Assembly (NCBI GenBank): GCA_016186645.1
Contig: JACPLF010000006.1
Location: 46,312 to 110,311 of the forward strand
Reading direction: 5' to 3'
From: Candidatus Levyibacteriota bacterium
GTDB taxonomy: Bacteria > Patescibacteriota > Microgenomatia > Levybacterales > UBA12049
DNA: 64,000 nucleotides
Shown here in pieces: positions 4,143 to 61,777 of this stretch. The notes beneath the pieces are model-generated. The model searched no databases, was not told where the DNA came from, and saw nothing but the letters and a program-made list of their open reading frames with translations. The translations under genes were made by a program, and so were the position numbers. Within the stretch, counting starts at the first letter, position 1, and each line of letters begins with the position of its first letter.

Positions 4143-6127
4143 AAAACATTAAAAACTTTTTTAAATCTTACTGGATCGGGATTTTAATTGCTTTAACATT
4201 CTTTTTTGTGGGATTGAGCACTCTTTCTCATTACGGAATAAATATTGATGAGCCTATTCATTTTGAAAGAGGGAATGCTTATCTGGACCTTTTCCTAACA
4301 GGAAGAACAAAATATACGAATGCTGATTTTCAAAGCCCCAGAGTAAGTGAATGGAAATATAAGGGTTATGATGCAGATTATTTTATAAAAAATGACAGCG
4401 GTCATCCTCCGCTTAGCGGCATTTTAGCAGCCGCAACCAACAGAATTCTTTATGAGAAGTTAGGAGTAATGGATGACTTGGAAGCTTATCATGCATTTGA
4501 ATTATTCATTTCAGCTCTTCTTGTTTTTCTTGTTTTTGCCATGATTAAAAGAAGATATGGCACATTCGCAGGGACTATAGCATGCTTATCGATGGCTCTT
4601 TATCCTTTGTTTTATGGAGAGTCTCACTATAATATTAAGGATCCAATTGAGGCTTCATTTTTTGCTTTTACTCTTTATTTTTTATATCTTGGCGTAGAGA
4701 ATCTTAAAGCAAAATATTTTTTTATTTCAAGTTTTTTTTGTGCCCTAGCTTTTGGAACGAAATTCAATATAATCTTTCTGCCTTTCATAATCATTCCGTA
4801 TCTTTTTGTACGCTTTGGTTTTTCTTTAAATTTTAAAAAGATACCTAAAGGTGTTTATGTAAGCTTATTTTTGTATACAATTATTGTTTTAGTTATTCAT
4901 TTTCTCTCCAGACCCTTTCTGTGGCAGGATCCAATAAACCGTTTCCTATATATAATTGCGTATTATAAAAACATCGGAACAGGGACAAATTTTGAACCAA
5001 TGTTTCTCAAATATGGATGGAACACCTATCCAACATTTTTCGTTGGAATATCTACCCCCCTTGTTATCCTTATTTTATTTATTATTGGCGTATTAGTTGT
5101 CTTATTCAGGATAAAGAAAGAAAAAGATAAGTTCTCTTTCCTTCTACTTTTGTGGTTTGGAGTTACCATTCTTAGGGTTTCACTTCCTGGTACTTCAATA
5201 TATGGTGGAGTAAGGCAGATTATGGAATATATTCCTGCTATGGCAGGAATTGCTGGGTTGGGAGCCTTATATATTCGCGGTCTATTATTCAAGTTTATAA
5301 ATATCAAATTAGCCTCCATAATAATTTTTGCAGCATTTGTTCCTTTGATGGCAACTCTTGTGAGGTTACACCCAAATGAAAATTTATTTATAAATAGTTT
5401 GGTAGGAGGATTGAAGGGGGCAACTGAAAAAAAAATAATGGGAAACGCTTATCTGCAAGGGATATTGTGGCTGAACGAACATGCGGAACAAGGAGCTCGT
5501 TTTGGATTTCCTGTGGGACTTGGATCTAACTTTCCGCCTCAATTCGTACGCAAAGATATTAAATTTGGCGGCCATTTTTCAGGAATGAAACGAGGCGGAG
5601 AATATATGATAGAAATGTTTTCTGTTGAGTTTCCGATCCACAAGTATTCTTATGATTATTTGGATCGCTTTCTTATTCCAGTACATGTAAAGGCTGTAGA
5701 TGGAGTACCAATACTGAAAATTTGGAAAAACGATATAGCCCACACGAGGACTGGATTTGTAAATGAGATAGAGGAAGGAAGAATTTTAGTTGAAAAATCA
5801 GGAGACGGATTATCTTTCTCTGTAAAGCTCAAGGAGCCAGCATTTGTTACTAGAATTGAGATTAATTATAGCAATGATGATTGTACTCGCGAATTTAATG
5901 GAGATTTTAGTTACTCTTATGACGGAGATAAGGAGTATCTTTCTCCCGATGAATCTCCTTTAAATCAGGGTAGATACGTAATTTCCTTACAGACAGTTAA
6001 TAAGCTTGTTTATTTTTTCCCTGCTGTAAAAGCCAAGTGGGTATACGTTACGCCCCATGATTCAAACTCATGTTTGTTGAATGTTAAAAACGTGAGAATT
6101 TTTTCTTTGAAAGATATTAAGCCTTAA
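4139..6127 (+). CDS. GT-C-type integral membrane glycosyltransferase-like protein (paralog family A) with extracytoplasmic C-terminal beta-rich domain
   Basis: ATG at 4139 overlaps the upstream stop (ATGA); the track ORF starts earlier at a TTG at 4118. About 430 aa polytopic region followed by about 230 aa soluble domain. Paralogous to 7411..9334 and 42113..44191. Confidence 0.75.
   Translation: MKNIKNFFKSYWIGILIALTFFFVGLSTLSHYGINIDEPIHFERGNAYLDLFLTGRTKYTNADFQSPRVSEWKYKGYDADYFIKNDSGHPPLSGILAAATNRILYEKLGVMDDLEAYHAFELFISALLVFLVFAMIKRRYGTFAGTIACLSMALYPLFYGESHYNIKDPIEASFFAFTLYFLYLGVENLKAKYFFISSFFCALAFGTKFNIIFLPFIIIPYLFVRFGFSLNFKKIPKGVYVSLFLYTIIVLVIHFLSRPFLWQDPINRFLYIIAYYKNIGTGTNFEPMFLKYGWNTYPTFFVGISTPLVILILFIIGVLVVLFRIKKEKDKFSFLLLLWFGVTILRVSLPGTSIYGGVRQIMEYIPAMAGIAGLGALYIRGLLFKFINIKLASIIIFAAFVPLMATLVRLHPNENLFINSLVGGLKGATEKKIMGNAYLQGILWLNEHAEQGARFGFPVGLGSNFPPQFVRKDIKFGGHFSGMKRGGEYMIEMFSVEFPIHKYSYDYLDRFLIPVHVKAVDGVPILKIWKNDIAHTRTGFVNEIEEGRILVEKSGDGLSFSVKLKEPAFVTRIEINYSNDDCTREFNGDFSYSYDGDKEYLSPDESPLNQGRYVISLQTVNKLVYFFPAVKAKWVYVTPHDSNSCLLNVKNVRIFSLKDIKP
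5296..5436 (+). repeat. 141-nt tract identical to 8598..8738 in the downstream paralog, ending in an A9 homopolymer
   Basis: By eye the tracts match base for base, whereas flanking paralog sequence is only about 65-75% identical. Confidence 0.85.
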
Positions 6128-7361
6128 TGTTTGTGGAAAGCATTTTTTCTATGTGTGACTTCATTTTGTCGAAGCCAAAACGGCTTTTATATGTTTTGTA
6201 GGCATTTTCGCCCAGCCTTTTGCGAAGCGCCGGATTTTTTATCAGTTTTTCTAGAGCTTTCGCCAATGAAGCTTCGTTGCCGCTTTCTACGATTAATCCT
6301 GAAAAATTATCCTTAATATCTTCGGGTATACCATCGCAATTACTTACCACAAGTGTTTTACCGTAACTCATTGATTCCAAAACTGTTAATGCACTACTTC
6401 CCTGGCGCAGAGGAACAACAACTGTTATATCTGCCTCGGTTAAAATAGGGTTGATATCAGCTACAAAGCCTAAGAAAATGACTTTCTTGGTAATATTTAA
6501 TTTTTCCGCTAATTTTTTATTTAATTCATAAAACGATCCAGATCCAACTATTAAGCAGGTGATATTAGGATATTTCTGAGATAGTATTTTTATGGCATGA
6601 ATAATAAAATTTATACCTTTTCTTGGATCTTGTCTGCAAATAGAAACAATAAGAGGGCGAGAATATTTGGTTGTTTCTATGCTCTTGTCTCCTTCTCTTT
6701 TGAAAGTTTCTGCGTACCAAGGAAACATATGAATTTTTTTGTCTTCAACATTAAAGCCTTCTCTGATTATTTTTTTCGAGGAGTTGTAGTGTATTACTAC
6801 CAGATCGCAAAAATCCAAGGTTATTTTCTCAAATAGATTAAATACCCTCGCGACTATTTCATAGACAACTAAATATTTAATTTTAGGTATCAGTCCATAA
6901 TCTTTGACTCTTATTGCATCCAAGGCTCCTTTCATTTCATGACGAGTACTTGTGAAATAACTCGACATCATGGTCATATGAACATTTTTTTGAGGAAATA
7001 TCTTCAGAAAAGCACCCGGAAATGCCCATGGCCCCATTCCCCAAAGGATAAATTTAGCGATTTTCTTTTCTTTGACTATTCTTTTTATTTCTTTAGCAAA
7101 AATAAAGCTATAATAAGGAAGTCCTGCTAATGCTAGATGATGAAGAAATGGAAAAAGTTTCAGTAATTTTGTGTTCAAAATATGAATATCTCCATATTCT
7201 GTCTTTTCAACTCCTTGTTTTTTACCTATTGCTAGGGTGTGAACGGGGTAACCAAGGGAAGTTAGTGTGATTGCCAGAATTCGAGCGTATGCAGGGTACC
7301 CTCCGGGATCTTCTAGGGGAGATTTTCCGCTAATAATGAATACAGGTAGCTTAACTTTCAT
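6117..7361 (-). CDS. Glycosyltransferase family 1 (GT4)
   Basis: LESMSYGKTLVVSNCDGIPEDIKDNFSGLIV motif; 414 aa. Confidence 0.85.
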   Translation of the reverse strand: MKVKLPVFIISGKSPLEDPGGYPAYARILAITLTSLGYPVHTLAIGKKQGVEKTEYGDIHILNTKLLKLFPFLHHLALAGLPYYSFIFAKEIKRIVKEKKIAKFILWGMGPWAFPGAFLKIFPQKNVHMTMMSSYFTSTRHEMKGALDAIRVKDYGLIPKIKYLVVYEIVARVFNLFEKITLDFCDLVVIHYNSSKKIIREGFNVEDKKIHMFPWYAETFKREGDKSIETTKYSRPLIVSICRQDPRKGINFIIHAIKILSQKYPNITCLIVGSGSFYELNKKLAEKLNITKKVIFLGFVADINPILTEADITVVVPLRQGSSALTVLESMSYGKTLVVSNCDGIPEDIKDNFSGLIVESGNEASLAKALEKLIKNPALRKRLGENAYKTYKSRFGFDKMKSHIEKMLSTNIKA

Positions 7362-9342: not shown

Positions 9343-10560
9343 ATGAAAAAAATAAAAATTTTGGTGGTAACGAGCTCTTTCCCGCGCAGTAAAGCCGATT
9401 GGTGGGGACAATTCATTTTAAAAATTTATGAGCATTTACCTAAAGATAGATTTGCAATAACTATTTTAGCTCCACATTCTCCAGGCGCTAAGTTAAAAGA
9501 AAATTTTGAAGATATTAACATTTTCAGATTTCCATATTTTTACCCCTTTTCCCAAGAAATCTTAACAACAGGAAGCGGTATCTTACATAGTAAAGGCAAT
9601 ATTCTTGCAAAAATACAGGTTTCCACTTTTTTATTATCAGAATTTGTTTACGTAATTTTTATTCTCTTAACAAAGAAATTTGATATAGTTCATTCGCATT
9701 GGATTCTGCCTCAGGGTTTTTTTGGAGTTATAGCAAAATATATATTTAAAATACCTTTAATTGTTACTATACATGGAAGCGATATCTTTGCATTAAAAAA
9801 ACTTAACCTTATTAAATCTTTTGTATTAAGAAAATCAACCATCGTTACCGCAAATAGTACTGCAACACAAAGAGAAGCTTACGCAGTTAGTTCTAATTCA
9901 AATCCACTTTTAATACCAGAAGGTGTAGATTTAAACGTATTCAATTCCAAGAAAAGGGACTTACAATGGAGAAAAAAAATGAATAATAATGACCAAATTA
10001 TTATTGCAGTGGGAAGGCTGATAAAGTGGAAGGGTTTTGACTATCTTATAAAGGCAATGCCTAAAATACTTAAAAAGTTTCCTAAAGTAAAACTTGTTAT
10101 TGTAGGTTCAGGTCCTGAAGAAATGAATTTAAAAAAAATTGTAGAATTTTTGGGATTAGATAAAAATGTTGTATTTTTAAAAAATGTATCTCATGACAAA
10201 CTTTCAGTGATGTATGCATCGAGCGATATTTTCGTGTCTCCATCAATAACGAATGAAGCTAGTGGAGAAAAAGAAGCATTGGGGATTGTTATTATAGAAG
10301 CGATTGCCTCAGGAATTCCGGTTGTTGCGAGCAATAGCGGTGGCATTAGAGATACTGTAGATGGCAAATCAACGGGATTTCTTGCAAAAGAAAAAGATCC
10401 TGATGATATAGCTCAAAAGACAACGGATTTACTATCTAATTTGAAAATTAGAAGAGAAATCATCAAAAAAGGCTTAAGACATGTTGAGAAAAGATATTCA
10501 TGGGATATTCTGGCAAAGAAATATAGTGACTTATATGAAAAATGCATGAAGTTGACATAA
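9343..10560 (+). CDS. Glycosyltransferase family 1 (GT4)
   Basis: EALGIVIIEAIASGIPVVASNSGGIRDTV motif. Confidence 0.85.
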   Translation: MKKIKILVVTSSFPRSKADWWGQFILKIYEHLPKDRFAITILAPHSPGAKLKENFEDINIFRFPYFYPFSQEILTTGSGILHSKGNILAKIQVSTFLLSEFVYVIFILLTKKFDIVHSHWILPQGFFGVIAKYIFKIPLIVTIHGSDIFALKKLNLIKSFVLRKSTIVTANSTATQREAYAVSSNSNPLLIPEGVDLNVFNSKKRDLQWRKKMNNNDQIIIAVGRLIKWKGFDYLIKAMPKILKKFPKVKLVIVGSGPEEMNLKKIVEFLGLDKNVVFLKNVSHDKLSVMYASSDIFVSPSITNEASGEKEALGIVIIEAIASGIPVVASNSGGIRDTVDGKSTGFLAKEKDPDDIAQKTTDLLSNLKIRREIIKKGLRHVEKRYSWDILAKKYSDLYEKCMKLT

Positions 10561-19696: not shown

Positions 19697-20521
19697 ATGA
19701 ATAAAAATCCCTTAGTTTCCGTATTGGTTCATACGAAAAATTCCAGCCGTACAATCTTGGAACACTTAGAAAGCATAAAAAATCAGTCCTACAAAAATGT
19801 AGAGATAATAGTTGTTGATAATAATTCACAAGATCAGACTTTAAAAATAGCGAAACAATTTACAGACAATATATTTAATGCGGGTCCTGAGAGAAGTGCG
19901 CAGAGAAATTTTGGGGCAAAAAAAGCAAAGGGAGATTATTATTTGGTTCCGGATTCAGACATGATTTTAGATAAAAACGTGATTAGAGAGTGTGTATTAA
20001 AAGTGGAGGAAGATCCTGAAGTTAAGGCTGTAATAATATGTGAAAAAAGTTTTGGAAAAGGATTTTGGGCAAAATGTAAAACATTGGAGAGAGAATGTTA
20101 TGTTGGAGATAATGCAATTGAGGCTGCAAGATTTTTCGATAAAAATGTTTTTTGGGAAATGGGGGGATATGATGAAAATATGACAGGGCCTGAAGATTGG
20201 GATCTTCCTCAGAGAATAAAGAAAAAGTATCAGATCGGCCGGATAAAAAGTCAGATTATTCATGACGAGGGAAAGGTTACTCTTGCAGGTCTTATGAAAA
20301 AGAAATATTATTATGCGAAAAAAGTATCTGTATATTTAAGAAAGCATCCTTTAAGTACAACTGGAAGTCAAATCATTTATCTTTTAAGGCCCGCTTTTTA
20401 TAGAAATTGGAAAAAACTCGCTAAAAATCCATTAATAACCTGTGGTATGATAATTATGCTTGCTTTTGAGCAAACGGCGGGATTTTTTGGTTTTATTTCC
20501 GCTACTTTTAATTCAAAATGA
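19697..20521 (+). CDS. Glycosyltransferase family 2
   Basis: VSVLVHTKN...EIIVVDNNSQD...DSD motifs. Confidence 0.8.
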   Translation: MNKNPLVSVLVHTKNSSRTILEHLESIKNQSYKNVEIIVVDNNSQDQTLKIAKQFTDNIFNAGPERSAQRNFGAKKAKGDYYLVPDSDMILDKNVIRECVLKVEEDPEVKAVIICEKSFGKGFWAKCKTLERECYVGDNAIEAARFFDKNVFWEMGGYDENMTGPEDWDLPQRIKKKYQIGRIKSQIIHDEGKVTLAGLMKKKYYYAKKVSVYLRKHPLSTTGSQIIYLLRPAFYRNWKKLAKNPLITCGMIIMLAFEQTAGFFGFISATFNSK

Positions 20522-21504
20522 ATATTTTAGTAACTGGAGGAGCGGGATATCTAGGAAGCGTTCTTGTTGGAAAACTTTTGGCGGAAAACAATAAAGTAAG
20601 AGTTTTGGATGCTCTCATGTTTGGAGGAGAGGGAATCTTGCCCTTTATTTATCACAAGAACTTCGAATTTGTAAAAGGGGATACCAGAAATAAAGAAACA
20701 GTTTTAAAATCTTTGGAAGGAGTGGATTGCGTTTTTCATTTGGCAGCTCTTGTTGGTGAGCCTGCTTGCAGCGTTAATCCATCCTTGACAGAGCAAATCA
20801 ATCATGAGTCAGCAGTTCTGGTTGGTAAGTCAGCTAAAGAAAATGGCGTTGAAAGAATTATTTTTACTTCAACTTGCAGCAATTATGGAATATCCAATTT
20901 AGATGAATTGGCAACAGAAGAATCTCCTCTTAATCCCTTGTCTTTGTATGCGGAGACAAAAATAGCAACAGAAAAAGATCTCTTAGAATTATCCGATTCA
21001 AGCTTTACTGTTTGTGTCTTGAGACTAGCTACAATTTTCGGATTATCAGGAAGGATGAGATTCAATCTTTTGATAAATGAAATGGTTAGAGAAGCTTACG
21101 TAAATAAAAAGATTTTATTGTATAAAGAAGATGCTTGGAGGCCTTATGCGCATACGCAGGATGCATCAGATGCTCTGATTAGCGTTTTAAACGCAGAAAG
21201 CTCAAAGATAAATCATGAAATTTTTAATATGGGAACAGAAAACTACCAGAAAAAAGGATTAGTAGAATTGGTAAAGAAATATGTTCCAGATCTAGAAATC
21301 GATAGACAAGGAGGACTTCCTGACAACAGAGACTATAAAGTTTCTTTTGAAAAAATAAAAAGAGTTATAGGTTTTACTCCGAAAAGAAAAGTTGCAGATG
21401 GAGTCGACGAGCTTTTCTGGGCGGTTAAGAATAATGTTTTCAGCAATCTTTATGATGATAGATACGTAAGCTGGATAAATGAAAAAGTTTTGGATAAATT
21501 ATGA
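20518..21504 (+). CDS. NAD-dependent sugar epimerase/dehydratase (SDR)
   Basis: ILVTGGAGYLGS Rossmann motif and a YAETK (YxxxK) catalytic dyad. Confidence 0.8.
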   Translation: MNILVTGGAGYLGSVLVGKLLAENNKVRVLDALMFGGEGILPFIYHKNFEFVKGDTRNKETVLKSLEGVDCVFHLAALVGEPACSVNPSLTEQINHESAVLVGKSAKENGVERIIFTSTCSNYGISNLDELATEESPLNPLSLYAETKIATEKDLLELSDSSFTVCVLRLATIFGLSGRMRFNLLINEMVREAYVNKKILLYKEDAWRPYAHTQDASDALISVLNAESSKINHEIFNMGTENYQKKGLVELVKKYVPDLEIDRQGGLPDNRDYKVSFEKIKRVIGFTPKRKVADGVDELFWAVKNNVFSNLYDDRYVSWINEKVLDKL

Positions 21505-21625
21505 CCCTCCTTCGTGCCTCCTTCGCCGACCTGCGCTTCGCCGCGAAGGCTCCGGCAAGGCGAGAGTGGCTACGAAGGCCGAGTAAAACTACGAAGGGTC
21601 ATGCCGTCGAAGCTGAGTGAAAGTG
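21505..21625 (+). other. GC-rich (about 60%) palindrome-containing intergenic element, candidate structured RNA or attenuator
   Basis: Follows the stop at 21504. Contains repeated CCTTCG/CGAAGG units, a GACCCTCCTTCG...CGAAGGGTC long-range complement and a CTTCGCCGCGAAG hairpin. Confidence 0.4.
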
Positions 21626-55314: not shown

Positions 55315-56382
55315 ATGAAATATAAAAAAATTCTTGTGACTGGCGGAGCCGGATTTGTAGGATCGAATATCTGCATAAAATTAAAACAAGAATTCCCGCA
55401 AATTCAAATCACGGCTTTTGATAACTTGATTAGGAAAGGATCCGAACTTAATCTTCCTCGATTCAAGAAGCAGGGAATTGGTTTTATTCGTGGAGATGTC
55501 AGAAATAGAGCTGACCTTGCTCTTTCAGATATAGATCTTATTATTGAATGTTCTGCTGAGCCATCGGTTATGGCTGGGGTAACATCATCTCCGGAATATC
55601 TTGTAGACACCAACCTTATTGGCGCCTTAAACTGTTTTGAGTTGGCGAGAAAAACAAAAGCAGACGTAGTATTTTTGTCCACAAGCAGAGTCTATCCGGT
55701 AAAACATTTAAATAATCTGTCGTTTAAAGAAGATAAAACACGATTTTCACTTGTTAGCGATCAGTCAATAAGGGGTAGTTCGGAAGAAGGGATAACAGAA
55801 GATTTTCCTTTGGACGGAGTTAGGACTTTGTATGGAGCAACAAAATTGTCTGCAGAGTTTATGTTGACAGAGTACATCAACAATTATGGGATAAAGGGAA
55901 TCATAAATAGATGCGGCCTTATTACTGGCCCTTGGCAGATGGGAAAAGTGGACCAGGGAGTTATCGTGTTATGGATGGCAAAGCACGTGTACAAAAAACC
56001 TCTATCATACATAGGATTTGGAGGAGAGGGAAAACAGGTTAGGGACATAATAGATATAGACGATCTGTTCGATCTTTTAAAAATTCAACTGGAGGATATA
56101 GAAAAATATAGTGGAGAAATATTTAATGTTGGAGGAGGAAGAAAAAATAGTCTTTCTCTTTTAGAATTAACAAATCTTTGCAGGAATATTTCTGGGAATG
56201 AAATAAAAATAGAAAAAGTAAAAGAAGATAGGGCGGGGGATGTAAGGATATACATTGGGGATAACAGTAAAATAACAAAATTGTCCGGATGGAGTCCAAA
56301 AAAATCCACGAAAAAGACTTTAGAGGAAATTTATAAATGGATAATAGGTAATAAAGATAATCTTGAACCGATTCTTTCTTAA
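55315..56382 (+). CDS. CDP-paratose 2-epimerase-like SDR, tandem paralog
   Basis: Start at MKYKKILVTGGAGFVGS; YGATKLSAEFMLTEY; NVGGG...SLSLLEL. Confidence 0.65.
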   Translation: MKYKKILVTGGAGFVGSNICIKLKQEFPQIQITAFDNLIRKGSELNLPRFKKQGIGFIRGDVRNRADLALSDIDLIIECSAEPSVMAGVTSSPEYLVDTNLIGALNCFELARKTKADVVFLSTSRVYPVKHLNNLSFKEDKTRFSLVSDQSIRGSSEEGITEDFPLDGVRTLYGATKLSAEFMLTEYINNYGIKGIINRCGLITGPWQMGKVDQGVIVLWMAKHVYKKPLSYIGFGGEGKQVRDIIDIDDLFDLLKIQLEDIEKYSGEIFNVGGGRKNSLSLLELTNLCRNISGNEIKIEKVKEDRAGDVRIYIGDNSKITKLSGWSPKKSTKKTLEEIYKWIIGNKDNLEPILS

Positions 56383-56383
56383 C

Positions 56384-59300
56384 ATGAAATTACGAAAAAT
56401 AATTTTGACTATACTTTTGTTTTCGTTATCATTTGTTCCGTTTTTATGGTTCCCTAAAGACCAAATTCTAATAGGCTATGACAATGTTTACCCTCTTAAT
56501 GCGGCAGCTTTCCTAAAAGATAGAATATTTTCATGGACTACAACATCTGGGTTTGACATGGATCAGTCCGGTATTCAGGGGAGCTTAGTTATTCACTTTG
56601 TGGATAGCATTCCTCAGTTGTTGGGACTTCCGGTCCAGCTTAGTCAAAAAATCGTGTTCAGCTTTTGGTTCTTTTTACTATTATTCTCTCCCTATTTTTT
56701 TATCACCAGACTTGAAAAGGCTGGTCTAATCAAAAGTTCATATCTTCGATATTTTTTCCCTGTTTTATATGCATTTAATTTCTACATTCTTCAGGCATGG
56801 TGGGTAGCAGAACGAACAAAGTTTTCTCTCGTTGTTGTTATGCCTCTAATTCTTTCGCTTCTTATACCTATGGCCCTGCAGAAGCTTACTTTGAGAAATA
56901 TAATAAAAACCGCACTTACTTGCTCTATATTACTATCCATCTTTAACGGCGGGGGATGGGTTGGTTTCCCTCTTTACGGAGGCTTACTTATTGCGCTTTC
57001 AGTTTATTATTTCTTTTTTCTTGGTTTCTATTTCTTTACAAACCAGAAGAGAAATATTGGGTATCTTACTTTATTTTTTCTTTGCTTTGGATTTTCGTAT
57101 ATTTTGCTTAATGCTTATACTTTGGTTCCATTCTTGCTGACAACTTTACGGGAATACAGCGCTCTTGTGCAAAGCTCGGGAGGAGTCTTGGGGCTTATTG
57201 AGTGGGCAAAATATTTAAGTTCCGACACCAGCATAGCTAACCTTTTGCGTCTGCAGGGAATACCGGATTGGTATAATAGCGGGAAAGATCACCCCTACGC
57301 GTTAATATATTTACAAAATCCTTTTTTTATCATTGCCAGCTTTCTTTTTCCCGCTTTTCTTTTTCTTTCTTTTCTGAGAAAGAAAAAAGAGAATACTCTA
57401 CTTATTTTTTTCTTTCTCATACTCCTTCTTGTCTCCCTTCTTTTTACTCAGGGCGTACATAAGCCGCTGGGCTCCATAATGGAGTTTTTAATGGAGGTTA
57501 TTCCCGGTTTTATTGCATTTCGTTCGGCAATTTTCAAATTCGGATATGCCTACTGGTTTTCTATAAGCTTTCTTATTGGACTTTTTTTGAGCGAAGCAAT
57601 TGAGTTTATTCTAGGGAAGATAAAACAGAGACAAATAAGCTCTCCCCTAAAGGTTCTATTGCCGCTTGTAATTATATTATTGCTTATTTTATATCATTTT
57701 CCCTACCTGACCGGTAATATTTTCCGAATTGAATCAAGGCAAATTGCCTCGCGCGTAACAGTTCCGTCTTATGTGCATGAATTTTCCAAATGGTGGAGGG
57801 AAAATGGGAAAAACGATAAAGTACTGCTGCTTCCGCAGCTAAATAGCAATTGGGGTTTGGAACAATATAGATGGGGATATATGAGCCTTGCTCCAATTTT
57901 GGGAAATTTTGCCAACAAAAATATTATTGAAAATACAGTTGTTCTTTCCTCTGCGGAAACAAGAATATTAAACGATTTCTACTCTGCTGTTAACGAAAAA
58001 AATTATCTAAAAATGGATGCAAATGCAAATGCGCTTAGTATTAAATATTTTTTGGCCCGAAAAGATTTCTATTATGATATTCCGGATCAGGAAACAACAG
58101 ACCCTTTACTTTTGGAGGAAAGGTTATTGGGGAATCCAAAAATTGTTAAAGTTAAATCATTCGGCCAATGGGACTTATATGCGTACACAGAGGAAAAACC
58201 GCTCTTTTTTGCAAGAACGTCAGCTATCCTGGGAATTGGAAATACAGCAAATGAGCACTATACTATTGCAGATAATGCACTCATTCTCGAAGGAGACAGT
58301 TTTATAAAAAACCCTCAGACTTTTTCTCACACATTTATTCAGCCGTCGTGTCTCAACTGCGATATAGAAAAAGAGGATTTGCAGCTGATTGTACCAAAGC
58401 CACGCGTGTTGATTGATTCAAAGTTCTACCAATTCGTAGAATTGCGGGACAGAATTTTCAGCCCAAAGTATAAATCCGTAGATAGCTATGTTGTAAATCT
58501 TCTTGGAGAAACATTAAAACTTAGCGGACAAATAAACGAGCTTGTTTCACAGGGGAGAAATGAAGAATATATTGCTTTTGCAAAAAATAAATTTATTCAC
58601 AATCTGGACCTAGTTGGCCAAGAGCTCCCAAATATTTTTGAAAAATCCGCGAACCCTTATTATACTTTTTTTGTTATCCAGCAGTATTTGGAGGCAGAAG
58701 ACAAATACATTTCAAACATTATTTCTACAAAGATTGATAGCAAAAGCGTATTCTCTGATCTGGAAAAAATACTTCTTTCAATAAGTCAGCTTAATAATGA
58801 AGTTCAGGCATCTTATACAATTGGAAATGCAAGTATTGAAAAAAAATATAGATTCGTAACGGAAGAAAGCGGAAATTACTTTGTCCGTATACGCCGTGAC
58901 ACAATTGGTACGTTGGTAAATAATGATCCGTCAAGTATCATAGTTTCCATTAATGATAAGCCCGTAAAAATAGATCCGAAACTTGATTATAAATATATAA
59001 TATTAGGAGATTTATATTTTGGTCAGGGAGATCAAATATTGACATTAGTTTTTCCTGAGCAGAAAAATCTTTTTACTCCTGGTACGCTGCAAACTATCGC
59101 CGCAAGAAACTGCGTCTCTTCAGTGATTAACAATTTTTCTCCAGCAAAAACATATAGTCTTAGGTTTTTATCCCGAAATAATTTTGATCAAAGCTTTTAT
59201 CTTTTTATCGATAATGCTGAAACATACGCCCCTACATACAGATCTTTTTTTCCGATTTCAAGAGAACACGTGACCAATAATAAGATAACTGTTTCTTCCA

Positions 59301-59764
59301 ATACAATGCATTTAAACAAATATTCAAATAGGCTACGTATCGCTTTTTGTGCAGCAACATTAACTGAAGATTTATTTAAAGAAAATATTTCCGATCTCGC
59401 TCTCATAGAGCTTACAAGTCCGATAGTAACGTTAGTTAAACAAGATAAAAATGTTTTTCAAAACATACCAGAGATAACTTTTGAAGAAGAAAATCAAACT
59501 CACTATAAAGTGCATGTTGAAAAAGCAGATGAACCATTTTACCTTGTTTTTAGCAGGAGATATTCGTCTGGGTGGAAAGCAAACATTGGTGATCATGTCA
59601 TCGGAAATAAATATGCAAATGTTTGGTATGTTGATAAAACCGGAGATATGGATATTGATGTCGTTTATGGTCCGCAAAGATATTTTACGTTTGGCGCAAT
59701 TATATCGCTATTATCAATCACTGCAGTTATAGGAATAATTATAAGATTAAAAAAATATGCGTAA
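56384..59764 (+). CDS. Very large polytopic membrane protein with roughly 650 aa extracytoplasmic domain, putative GT-C glycosyltransferase
   Basis: 1133 aa. N-terminal roughly 450 aa is highly hydrophobic; C-terminal TM anchor (IISLLSITAVIGIII). Start at the ATG just after the upstream stop. Confidence 0.5.
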   Translation: MKLRKIILTILLFSLSFVPFLWFPKDQILIGYDNVYPLNAAAFLKDRIFSWTTTSGFDMDQSGIQGSLVIHFVDSIPQLLGLPVQLSQKIVFSFWFFLLLFSPYFFITRLEKAGLIKSSYLRYFFPVLYAFNFYILQAWWVAERTKFSLVVVMPLILSLLIPMALQKLTLRNIIKTALTCSILLSIFNGGGWVGFPLYGGLLIALSVYYFFFLGFYFFTNQKRNIGYLTLFFLCFGFSYILLNAYTLVPFLLTTLREYSALVQSSGGVLGLIEWAKYLSSDTSIANLLRLQGIPDWYNSGKDHPYALIYLQNPFFIIASFLFPAFLFLSFLRKKKENTLLIFFFLILLLVSLLFTQGVHKPLGSIMEFLMEVIPGFIAFRSAIFKFGYAYWFSISFLIGLFLSEAIEFILGKIKQRQISSPLKVLLPLVIILLLILYHFPYLTGNIFRIESRQIASRVTVPSYVHEFSKWWRENGKNDKVLLLPQLNSNWGLEQYRWGYMSLAPILGNFANKNIIENTVVLSSAETRILNDFYSAVNEKNYLKMDANANALSIKYFLARKDFYYDIPDQETTDPLLLEERLLGNPKIVKVKSFGQWDLYAYTEEKPLFFARTSAILGIGNTANEHYTIADNALILEGDSFIKNPQTFSHTFIQPSCLNCDIEKEDLQLIVPKPRVLIDSKFYQFVELRDRIFSPKYKSVDSYVVNLLGETLKLSGQINELVSQGRNEEYIAFAKNKFIHNLDLVGQELPNIFEKSANPYYTFFVIQQYLEAEDKYISNIISTKIDSKSVFSDLEKILLSISQLNNEVQASYTIGNASIEKKYRFVTEESGNYFVRIRRDTIGTLVNNDPSSIIVSINDKPVKIDPKLDYKYIILGDLYFGQGDQILTLVFPEQKNLFTPGTLQTIAARNCVSSVINNFSPAKTYSLRFLSRNNFDQSFYLFIDNAETYAPTYRSFFPISREHVTNNKITVSSNTMHLNKYSNRLRIAFCAATLTEDLFKENISDLALIELTSPIVTLVKQDKNVFQNIPEITFEEENQTHYKVHVEKADEPFYLVFSRRYSSGWKANIGDHVIGNKYANVWYVDKTGDMDIDVVYGPQRYFTFGAIISLLSITAVIGIIIRLKKYA

Positions 59765-60119
59765 TAACATTAGTAGGCTTATTGAATGGTATCATGTAAA
59801 TCTGGGAAGAGTAGTTTCTCTTTTTCTTCTTATAGTTGTGTTAGCGCTTCTATTTATCTACATTCCCTTTGTCAATATCATACTTTCTCCACAGTTAAGT
59901 ATTGTGATAATTTTGACGTCTTGGGGCATACTGTTTACGCCTTCCGTAAAAACATTGGTCTTATTCGCATTTTTTGTTCTGCTTATGGATATCATCCTAA
60001 CTTTTTTTGGTTTGGATGCGTTTGTTGACCCGCTTGGAAACATTTTTTATTTTCTGCTCATTTTTATATGCGTTAATTATGCAAAGGAAGTTTTTCAGAT
60101 GTACAAAAATAAAGAATGA
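59757..60119 (+). CDS. Small 3-4 TM membrane protein, hypothetical
   Basis: 120 aa; overlaps both neighbours by a few nt (operonic). Confidence 0.45.
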   Translation: MRNNISRLIEWYHVNLGRVVSLFLLIVVLALLFIYIPFVNIILSPQLSIVIILTSWGILFTPSVKTLVLFAFFVLLMDIILTFFGLDAFVDPLGNIFYFLLIFICVNYAKEVFQMYKNKE

Positions 60120-61777
60120 GATATTTTCTTGTAGTTATTATAATTCTCTTTATTTACTTACCATGGTTTCAGTTTTCGAAAACTTTATCAAGCGGAGATT
60201 GGCCATATTTGTTTGTAGAAAATATTCAGGCGTTTAAGATTCCAACAGATCTGCCCTTTCTGTGGCTTGAGCCTTACTATCAGCTGACAGCCAAGCTTGG
60301 AGTTCAGTTTTTTTCTTTGCCTTGGGAAGCAGCAGAGAAGATCTTTTGGTTTTTTCCATTTTTGGTAATTAGCTTGGTATCTTCATATTTTTTCTTAAAA
60401 TACCTAGCCTATAAATTTGAGATTGATGGCAAAGAATCTACGATTTTTATATCGCTAGGAAAAATTATTTTTACAGCAAACACTTATATTCTAATGTTGG
60501 TTGGCGGAGGGCAGATGGGAGTTGCAATCGCTTACTCCATGATCCCTCTTGTTTTCCTATTTTTTTTGAAACTTATTGATTCAAATAGTTCTTCGAGTCT
60601 TAATTCAAAATTCAAAATTCAAAATTCAAAATTATATATTTTTGCAATTTTGGCTTTGGGAACCCAATTAATGTTTGATCCGAGAATATTCTTATTGAGT
60701 GTATTTATCGCAGCTCTATATATTTTATTCAGATATAAAGAATTTAATGTAAAAATTTTAAAAAGAATTCTTGTAGTTTTAGTTCTAACTATTGCAACCA
60801 ACTTGTTTTGGATTTTACCTAATTTTGGTTATTTTAATACAGAATATAAATCTGCAATCGACGCAGCAAACGCAGATTTTCTAAGTTTTGCAACCTTTTC
60901 AAATTCAATTTCTCTTTTACACCCAAATTGGCCGGAAAATATATTTGGAAAAATCGGGTTTATGAAACCAGAGTTTATTTTAATACCTATTATTGCATTT
61001 TCCTCCCTTATCTTAGGCAATTCAACAATGAAACAATTTAACAATCGCATAGTCTTATTTTTCGCCTTTTTAGGAATTTTGGGAGCATTCTTTGCTAAAG
61101 GTACAAATCCTCCATTCGGAGAATTATATGGATGGTTATCGAATTTTCCGGGATTTTCTGTCTTCAGAGATCCAACGAAATTTTACATTTTAATAGCGGT
61201 TTCATATATGGTATTAATACCTTTAAGTTTATATAAACTCAGTGAAAAAGTATCAAGTATTAAGTATCCCCCCTTCGCCAAGGCTTTGGCGGGCAGGCAA
61301 GTATTAAGTATAGTTTTTATGGCATTTTGGTTAATAACAATTCATCCTGCTATGCTGGGAAACTTAACGGGAACTTTCAAGCCGCATGATGTTCCAAAAG
61401 AATATATTAGTCTTAAAAACTTTTTGTATTCTCAGACGGCTTTTACAAAAACACTTTGGGTTCCACAGATTGAAAGATTTGGTTTTAATTCAAGGACTAT
61501 TCCTGCGATATCTTCAATGGAGTTGTTTGGAGTAAGTTCCGTCTCCGAAGTATTGGATAAATTTAATACGTTAGAGACAAAAAAACAATTAATAGATGAA
61601 GAAGTAAAATATATTATTATTCCCTATGACTATCTGAAAGAACTTTTCTTAACAGAAAGAAAATACGATGAAAAGTTATATACGGCAACCATTAATAAAT
61701 TGGGAAAAGTTAACTGGCTTTCTGAGATGGAAAGTAAAAGCTTCGGAAAAATTAAAGTGTTTAAGTTATTAGATTAG
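60116..61777 (+). CDS. Polytopic membrane protein, putative GT-C-type glycosyltransferase; contains an in-frame heptanucleotide repeat
   Basis: 553 aa with more than 10 hydrophobic segments; N-terminal LPWFQF...GDW motif similar to the 50126 and 56384 proteins. Confidence 0.5.
   Translation: MRYFLVVIIILFIYLPWFQFSKTLSSGDWPYLFVENIQAFKIPTDLPFLWLEPYYQLTAKLGVQFFSLPWEAAEKIFWFFPFLVISLVSSYFFLKYLAYKFEIDGKESTIFISLGKIIFTANTYILMLVGGGQMGVAIAYSMIPLVFLFFLKLIDSNSSSSLNSKFKIQNSKLYIFAILALGTQLMFDPRIFLLSVFIAALYILFRYKEFNVKILKRILVVLVLTIATNLFWILPNFGYFNTEYKSAIDAANADFLSFATFSNSISLLHPNWPENIFGKIGFMKPEFILIPIIAFSSLILGNSTMKQFNNRIVLFFAFLGILGAFFAKGTNPPFGELYGWLSNFPGFSVFRDPTKFYILIAVSYMVLIPLSLYKLSEKVSSIKYPPFAKALAGRQVLSIVFMAFWLITIHPAMLGNLTGTFKPHDVPKEYISLKNFLYSQTAFTKTLWVPQIERFGFNSRTIPAISSMELFGVSSVSEVLDKFNTLETKKQLIDEEVKYIIIPYDYLKELFLTERKYDEKLYTATINKLGKVNWLSEMESKSFGKIKVFKLLD
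60602..60633 (+). repeat. (AATTCAA)x4.5 tandem heptanucleotide repeat inside a coding region
   Basis: Read directly: aattcaa aattcaa aattcaa aattcaa aatt; encodes NSKFKIQNSK. Confidence 0.9.

Follow-up and report, generated by a model that had tools for sequence, protein, structure and literature searches.

The AATTCAA array and its host gene

We analyzed a stretch of 64,000 nucleotides (nt) from Candidatus Levyibacteriota bacterium (assembly GCA_016186645.1, contig JACPLF010000006.1, positions 46,312 to 110,311 of the forward strand). The whole stretch is called the window, and all positions are window positions unless a locus is named. The subject is a tandem repeat of the heptanucleotide AATTCAA, which lies inside a gene for a membrane glycosyltransferase-like protein (the host gene). 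The first-pass annotation, made from the sequence alone, had described a heptanucleotide tandem repeat at 60602-60633 in the coding sequence of 60116..61777, encoding NSKFKIQNSK. This repeat is real, and it has 4.6 copies. The features concerned are the following.

60116..61777, + strand: host gene, coding for a GT-C-fold membrane glycosyltransferase-like protein of 553 amino acids (aa) with ~11 transmembrane (TM) helices (homologs, predicted structure).
60602..60633, + strand: perfect heptanucleotide array (AATTCAA)x4.6 (direct reading, Tandem Repeats Finder, shuffles, ortholog comparison).
60581..60622, + strand: codons of residues 156-169, the loop that separates helix 143-155 from helix 170-187 (model, frame simulation).

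Direct reading of 60602-60633 gave four AATTCAA units followed by AATT. Tandem Repeats Finder reported a period of 7, 4.6 copies, 100% matches and a score of 64, which ranked first among the 34 rows of the window. As an exact 32-mer, the array was unique in the window, and it appeared in none of 100 dinucleotide-preserving shuffles when 3 mismatches were allowed. No other perfect array was present in the window, and the other 55 long open reading frames (ORFs) did not contain any. With head-to-tail 7-nt units in at least three copies, the array belongs to the bacterial tandem heptanucleotide repeats. Rfam searches for a structured RNA returned no match at gathering thresholds in the window, nor at E ≤ 1 in 60400-61500.

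The array codes for N163-S-K-F-K-I-Q-N-S-K172 (aa 163-172). It can be read as an 11-nt seed, AATTCAAAATT, which codes for N-S-K-L, extended by three further units (21 nt, 7 aa). Gains and losses were then simulated. Changes of ±7 or ±14 nt in the array led to a stop codon at aa 183-190, and changes of ±21 nt (three units) kept the frame. The earlier statement that any gain or loss of a unit truncates the protein is correct for one or two units, with the stop falling after TM4; three units are in frame.

The structure of the host protein was modeled with AlphaFold 2 from 25 homologs. The model had a predicted local distance difference test score (pLDDT) of 80 and a predicted template modeling score (pTM) of 0.82. 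Residues 161-170 had a pLDDT of 56, the lowest block of the N-terminal half. By our count the model has eleven TM helices. The N-terminus would then face inward and the C-terminal domain outward, which is also the arrangement in GT-C enzymes of solved structure. The loop of residues 156-169 is K-rich, with two K/R and zero acidic residues. Because of this composition and the helix count, the repeat loop between TM4 and TM5 is probably cytoplasmic. The homolog alignment indicated that the repeat segment is the most length-variable stretch of the N-terminal half. Between the anchors GGGQMG and FDPR, the segment ranged from 33 to 72 aa among orthologs. Of 17 orthologs that carry an array here, 9 had a segment of 61 aa, and the median among those without an array was 51 aa. 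The low pLDDT and this range support the suggestion that the repeat peptide lies in a loop tolerant of length change.

The host protein is a predicted GT-C-fold glycosyltransferase, with a multi-TM N-terminal module and an outer soluble domain. Three lines of evidence led to this assignment: paralogy to the N-terminal GT-C domain of the AftD-like protein encoded upstream (25-34% identity), fold matches in the PDB, and conserved outer-loop residues. Foldseek searches of the model against the PDB matched STT3 (E=1e-6) and AftD (template modeling score 0.60), and also AftA, AglB and ArnT. D28 (in SSGDWPY), located in the first outer loop, was invariant in 25 of 25 aligned sequences, and the HPNWPEN and FRDPTKF outer loops were conserved in the same 25-homolog alignment. 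D28 may have a catalytic role, and the model places a C-terminal α/β domain outside, where it would form the soluble part. Pfam gave a sole, sub-threshold match to DUF6541 (11.4 bits against a cutoff of 29) and no curated-family match. More than 1000 homologs were found, and the named ones came from Levyibacteria, Gottesmanbacteria and other Microgenomates. The nearest was 65-69% identical, and an exact-protein look-up returned no record of the host protein itself. The label of membrane glycosyltransferase-like ORF, given by the first-pass annotation, agrees with the GT-C fold and with the glycan gene cluster described below.

Period-7 arrays among the orthologs

DNA from 169 loci yielded 153 unique orthologs of the host gene, from Levyibacteria and other Microgenomates. 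Loci are designated by L numbers. An array was counted when it had a period of 7 and at least 3 copies. By this count, 74 of the 153 orthologs (48%) carried at least one period-7 array, 38 carried two to five, and the total was 142 arrays. All except one (141/142) were located at five sites, corresponding to aa ~150-180, 198-226, 296-318, 372-396 and 397-412 of the window protein. These sites are the four predicted cytoplasmic loops after TM4, plus TM11. The array had been called unexpected in a reduced genome. That view did not hold, as roughly one ortholog in two from related genomes has arrays, and heptamers are reported as the commonest long simple sequence repeats (SSRs) of bacteria.

Perfect arrays were defined by one criterion for all periods, at least 14 consecutive self-matches at lag p, with p=1-21. 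The perfect in-gene arrays had periods of 7 (43 arrays), 14 (13 arrays), 16 (5 arrays) and 8 (4 arrays), with one each at 17, 20 and 21. There were zero perfect in-gene arrays at periods 1-6 or 9-13, so none at 3, 6, 9 or 12. When the codons of the first 87 orthologs were shuffled twenty times and scored by a slightly stricter criterion of 16 matches, no array of any period appeared. In the gene, perfect arrays had a density of 17.8 per 100 kb; the flanks (1.03 Mb in total) had 1.6 per 100 kb, an 11-fold difference. Most flank arrays were inside ORFs, mainly those of GT4-type glycosyltransferases. The arrays are intragenic, unlike the predominantly intergenic members of the bacterial heptamer-repeat class. 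Their units differed among lineages and included AATTCAA, AATTTAA, AAATTTC, AATTTTC, AAATATC, AAATGTC and AGTTCAA; GTTCGCA, GATTACG, AAACCTC, AAGTATC, TCTTACT and others were also found.

The lengths of the arrays were quantized. Perfect arrays reached a maximum of 35 nt and peaked at exactly 32 nt. When all arrays were pooled, a peak was observed at 30-35 nt and a minor one at 48-53 nt. Both peaks are consistent with a seed of 9-14 nt to which 21 or 42 nt were added. In the closest relatives, remnants of one to three copies were present at the array site (AATTCTAAATTC in L081 and AAGTTCA x2.9 in L089). Only frame-preserving outcomes were observed across orthologs, and none of the 153 was frame-split. 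The length ceiling was also considered as a product of Logan k=31 repeat collapse; this was rejected, as NCBI and JGI assemblies showed the same 30-35-nt ceiling. L143, a candidate frameshifted ortholog, was rejected as well: it is cut at ~aa 454 by a junction with a tyrosyl-tRNA-synthetase-like fragment, not at an array. At ~6340-6400 of L143 the sequence runs into this fragment in another frame, which represents a rearrangement or an assembly chimera.

Near-identical strains were compared for copy number. A metagenome scan with P0044 gave a single 100% match, and an all-against-all comparison of 80 loci gave near-identical pairs (L017/L098, L022/L120, L101/L102, L108/L109 and L136/L137, 99.1-99.98% identical). 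No copy-number difference was detected across these pairs in ~15 sister arrays, which are arrays of the orthologs and not that of the window. The invariant arrays included perfect ones of 4.6-4.9 copies. In ten protein clusters formed at 90%, full-length members had equal lengths with one exception, which was not mapped to an array. Short cluster members (46-49 aa), considered as variants, were unrelated sequences, and the divergence of P0125 and P0121 was unconnected with arrays.

Second array, GC-rich hairpin modules and gene cluster

Further features of the host gene and the two genes upstream of it are listed below.

61248..61311, + strand: second heptamer array of the host gene, AAGTATC/AAGTATT, in the TM10-TM11 loop (direct reading, Tandem Repeats Finder).
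61269..61298, + strand: in-frame 30-nt GC-rich hairpin insert CCCCCTTCGCCAAGGCTTTGGCGGGCAGGC, inside the second array (boundaries ±1 nt).
61024..61045, + strand: 8-nt repeat AACAATNN x2.8, in the TM8-TM9 loop, coding for TMKQFNN (Tandem Repeats Finder, orthologs).
56363..59764, + strand: AftD-like GT-C paralog of 1133 aa, upstream in the same operon (Pfam, paralogy); array-free comparison gene.
59757-60119: conserved membrane protein of 117-120 aa, encoded between the two GT-C genes (no Pfam match).

Without its insert, the second array is 34 nt long and has 4.9 copies. Array and insert together code for KVSSIKY-PPFAKALAGR-QVLSI, of which PPFAKALAGR comes from the insert. The motif KVSSIKY-x-VLSI, which reflects the second array, is common to many orthologs. 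The insert has a GC content of ~70% and a stem of CGCCAA/TTGGCG. Relatives of it, sharing termini with the window insert, were found in L153, L011 and L072. In L153, a distant ortholog, a near-identical 30-nt insert is located in the equivalent loop (~6226-6255) with the stem CGCCGA/TCGGCG. This compensatory stem change between the window and L153 suggests that the hairpin itself is under constraint. The 8-nt unit at the TM8-TM9 site was also observed in L079, L082, L089, L069 and L075, with 3.4-4.9 copies, and it is the only recurring period other than 7.

GC-rich hairpin modules within or abutting arrays were present in L008, L022, L026, L035, L011, L072, L153 and L109, and there were about ten clear examples. 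A crude adjacency test found that 5 of 151 GC islands touched an array zone, against ~2-4 expected (P ~0.3). In L032, at 4825-4962, a 67-nt GC-rich unit, which contains CTTCGGCGGACAGGTCGGCGGACAAG, is tandemly duplicated in the TM8-TM9 loop of the ortholog; the unit is related to the hairpin modules but larger. The window also has an intergenic palindromic element of 81 nt at 21505-21585 (68% GC, minimum free energy -34.6), just past the stop codon of the ORF 20518-21504. The 16-mer GGCTACGAAGGCCGAG is common to this element and to the GC insert of the L011 GT4 gene, and hairpin modules of this family are thus not confined to genes.

One polymorphism at a heptamer/hairpin site was found between near-identical strains. 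A 23-nt indel (L108 7888, L109 8851-8873) distinguishes L108 from L109, which are 99.6% identical. The indel consists of one ATATCAA unit and half of a two-hairpin GC module. The module of L109 has tandem 7-nt duplications on both sides (ATATCAA x2 and CAAACGT x2). The GT4 gene is intact in L109 (417 aa) and split in L108 (stop-to-stop frames of 240 and 211 aa). Among 56 loci with this GT4 gene, L108 was the sole one with a split at such a site. The split GT4 gene of L151 was examined as another array-linked case and rejected, as the split is not at an array. L109 also has a 71-nt insertion at 9761-9831 relative to L108 8774/8775, which is neither GC-rich nor heptameric.

The host gene is part of a cluster whose gene order is kept in relatives. 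The first part of the cluster codes for a DegT aminotransferase, two GT2 proteins, three epimerases, methyltransferases, a GT4 protein and an F5/8 type C (discoidin-domain) protein. The latter part codes for the AftD-like GT-C protein, the 120-aa membrane protein, the host protein, a methyltransferase and an EamA transporter. The cluster would make a surface glycan. The start codon of the host ORF overlaps the stop codon of the upstream ORF (ATGA), which is that of the small membrane protein at 59757-60119; this gene was present in all close relatives examined.

Origin and possible role of the array

In the best-supported account, the AATTCAA array belongs to a large family of arrays, not reported before, in the glycan genes of Microgenomates. 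As to its origin, we give a probability of roughly 50% to an array made by slippage and filtered by reading frame to a seed plus three units, in a tolerant cytoplasmic loop. Slipped-strand mispairing in a 7-nt register would have added exactly three units to the seed, thus adding seven residues to the short basic loop between TM4 and TM5. The process would be lineage-wide in Microgenomates, would generate almost only tandem heptamers, and would act on the host-gene family and on neighboring GT4 genes. As 7 is not a multiple of 3, +3 units, or rarely +6, would be the sole protein-sparing outcomes and hence the sole states seen; a one-unit change would create a null allele truncated at aa 183-190. 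Arrays would build up where the protein tolerates added length, and adaptive switching would not be involved. Since the comparative data show fixed in-frame states only, we read the tract as a latent mutational hazard, or a latent capacity for phase variation, rather than a demonstrated ON/OFF switch.

Published work on bacterial SSRs provides a background for slippage in this register. Bacterial tandem heptanucleotide repeats include the long SSRs of Mrazek et al. 2007, and heptamers are reported to be the most abundant of the long SSRs in the majority of bacterial genomes. A proposal in the literature is that 7 nt corresponds to the DNA segment held by the polymerase, and units that are multiples of three are described as the likeliest in coding regions. 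The cyanobacterial short tandemly repeated repetitive (STRR) sequences, Xanthomonas GGGAATC and Beggiatoaceae TAACTGA are abundant heptamer repeats, mostly intergenic, which have been discussed as regulatory. The repeat TTCAAAA of Nostoc PCC 7120 has been reported and is a rotation of AATTCAA. The Microgenomates arrays resemble these repeats in their excess of 7-nt units over other units, in typical copy numbers of 2-6, and in the proposal of polymerase slippage. Unlike them, they are intragenic, are read in all three frames, are quantized by frame, and occupy homologous loops of one protein family of the Candidate Phyla Radiation (CPR).

Several observations weigh against frame-filtered slippage in tolerant loops. 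A perfect (AATTTTC)x4.6 array is identical at 32/32 positions in the site-1 loop of L124, L110 and L141, whose proteins are only 55-57% identical. Where these three orthologs agree in amino acid, they use the same codon in only ~50% of cases; that is, synonymous sites are saturated. Such perfection is far from neutral decay, and the 32/32 identity despite saturation indicates that some arrays are kept perfect. In addition, a seed of <2 copies can reach 4.6 copies only by three slips, which would have to occur together or else pass through intermediates that are out of frame. The AftD-like paralog had 0 perfect period-7 arrays in 155 kb (53 loci), versus 43 in 242 kb of the host-gene family, and the other 55 long ORFs of the window are array-free too; slippage plus tolerance alone gives no reason for this. 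Triplet-multiple repeats are absent, though the protein would tolerate them better. The first-pass annotation had proposed a search for the repeat in other GT-C paralogs and related genomes; period-7 arrays were present in the relatives (74/153 orthologs), and the AftD-like paralog had no perfect one.

The behavior of the arrays was mixed. Other arrays, such as those of L140/L145, decay at the background rate. The window array is in register with the AATTTAA array of L085 (47% identity), which contains one AATTCAA unit. Conversion within the array could have replaced units, or a conserved seed could have expanded again and again; the match fits either. In L103, the perfect AATTTTC array of L124, L110 and L141 recurs, displaced by about one unit.

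The first-pass annotation had taken the repeat as the hallmark of a contingency locus. As a true contingency locus, reversible gain and loss of units would switch the host glycosyltransferase and the neighboring GT4 enzymes OFF and ON, and the surface glycans of an episymbiotic CPR cell would be diversified against phage or host pressure. What stands of this claim is the anatomy: the unit is non-triplet and inside an ORF, a change of one unit truncates the protein at once, and the gene is a glycosyltransferase gene of a glycan cluster. The precedent also stands. In Neisseria meningitidis, phase variation of pglE, a glycosyltransferase gene of protein glycosylation, occurs via an intragenic heptanucleotide repeat, and ON and OFF states are found among isolates of one carrier. 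The array is like that of pglE in having a 7-nt unit within the coding sequence of a glycan glycosyltransferase, where unit gain or loss shifts the frame. It shares with the contingency loci of Haemophilus influenzae (tetranucleotide tracts in lipooligosaccharide glycosyltransferase genes) the concentration of non-triplet SSRs in surface-glycan genes and, as the presumed mechanism, slipped-strand mispairing. SSR mutability climbs with copy number, and a 5-nt unit is already classed as hypermutable at three or more copies, in classes that give no value for 7-nt units. The 11-fold enrichment over flanks, the array-free adjacent paralog, the concentration of the remaining arrays in GT4 genes, the perfect arrays that outlast synonymous saturation, and the natural frameshift allele of the L108 GT4 gene all point in the same direction. 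The switching itself is not supported. No OFF allele was found among the 153 orthologs, and the ~15 sister arrays were invariant between near-identical strains. Perfect tracts do not exceed 35 nt, their lengths are quantized at a seed plus three units, and one gene can hold as many as five arrays, placed in its middle instead of as a single 5' tract; this resembles frame-filtered slippage products more than a tuned switch. The lone OFF allele is a 23-nt indel in another gene and not a unit slip. In these respects, and in being an integral-membrane GT-C protein, the host protein differs from PglE. H. influenzae and host-adapted pathogens like it have long tracts, which are mostly single and vary among close isolates, unlike the 4.6 copies and invariant sister arrays here. 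Taking both sides together, we consider reversible switching possible but rather unlikely.

The GC-rich inserts raise another explanation, in which the arrays are landing pads or footprints of 30-70-nt hairpin modules and the AATTCAA array is an empty or vacated site. It is favored by the inserts in or abutting arrays, at 61269-61298 of the window and at the eight loci named above, by the termini that the window insert shares with its relatives, by the compensatory stem pair between the window and L153, and by the L108/L109 polymorphism, which removes one heptamer unit along with half a module. Nostoc small dispersed repeats reportedly lie inside tandem heptamer repeats. Those repeats and the Rickettsia palindromic elements resemble the modules, as tiny hairpins with no visible transposase, some of them in frame in ORFs; the likeness concerns the GC insert at 61269-61298, not the AATTCAA array, and serves as a lead only. 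No GC module is near the AATTCAA array or near most of the 142 arrays, the adjacency test was not significant, and no transposase or RAYT-like gene was seen beside arrays. We consider an origin from such modules improbable. Chance low complexity in an AT-rich genome, or an assembly artifact, was refuted. A GC content of 32-37% in the genome and the many K/N/F/I codons of the loop speak for chance, but the 100 window shuffles did not contain the array, the codon shuffles of 87 orthologs gave none, and nearly all perfect arrays have a period of 7, 14, 8 or 16. The same kind of array was present in assemblies from many projects and assemblers. A broader and more speculative proposal, which we regard as unlikely, is a heptamer-specific repeat system of Microgenomates that is often coupled to GC-hairpin modules, targets particular genes of glycan synthesis, is kept perfect through long evolution, and generates frameshift (ON/OFF) and loop-length variants. 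The AATTCAA array would then be one active member of it.

In a literature search, the top-ranked matches contained no link of heptanucleotide or 7-bp repeats with Patescibacteria or Microgenomates, and the search returned no CPR work that dealt with tandem repeats in phase variation. CPR bacteria are assumed to be attached to host cells, and their surface glycans are therefore likely central to attachment and phage resistance. If the arrays switch or remodel glycosyltransferases, contingency-locus biology would extend beyond host-adapted pathogens to the largest uncultured bacterial radiation. If the heptamer-specific system is real, no contingency-locus-like hypermutation system would have been described in Patescibacteria before it, and the STRR sequences and small dispersed repeats of cyanobacteria would have a counterpart in coding regions. 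Even on the conservative reading, frame-filtered slippage, the family represents an unusual mode of protein evolution, in which loops grow in 7-residue steps by 7-nt slippage at five fixed positions while the adjacent paralog is untouched. The arrays may then serve as a clean natural system in which to study the preference of bacterial slippage for a 7-nt register.

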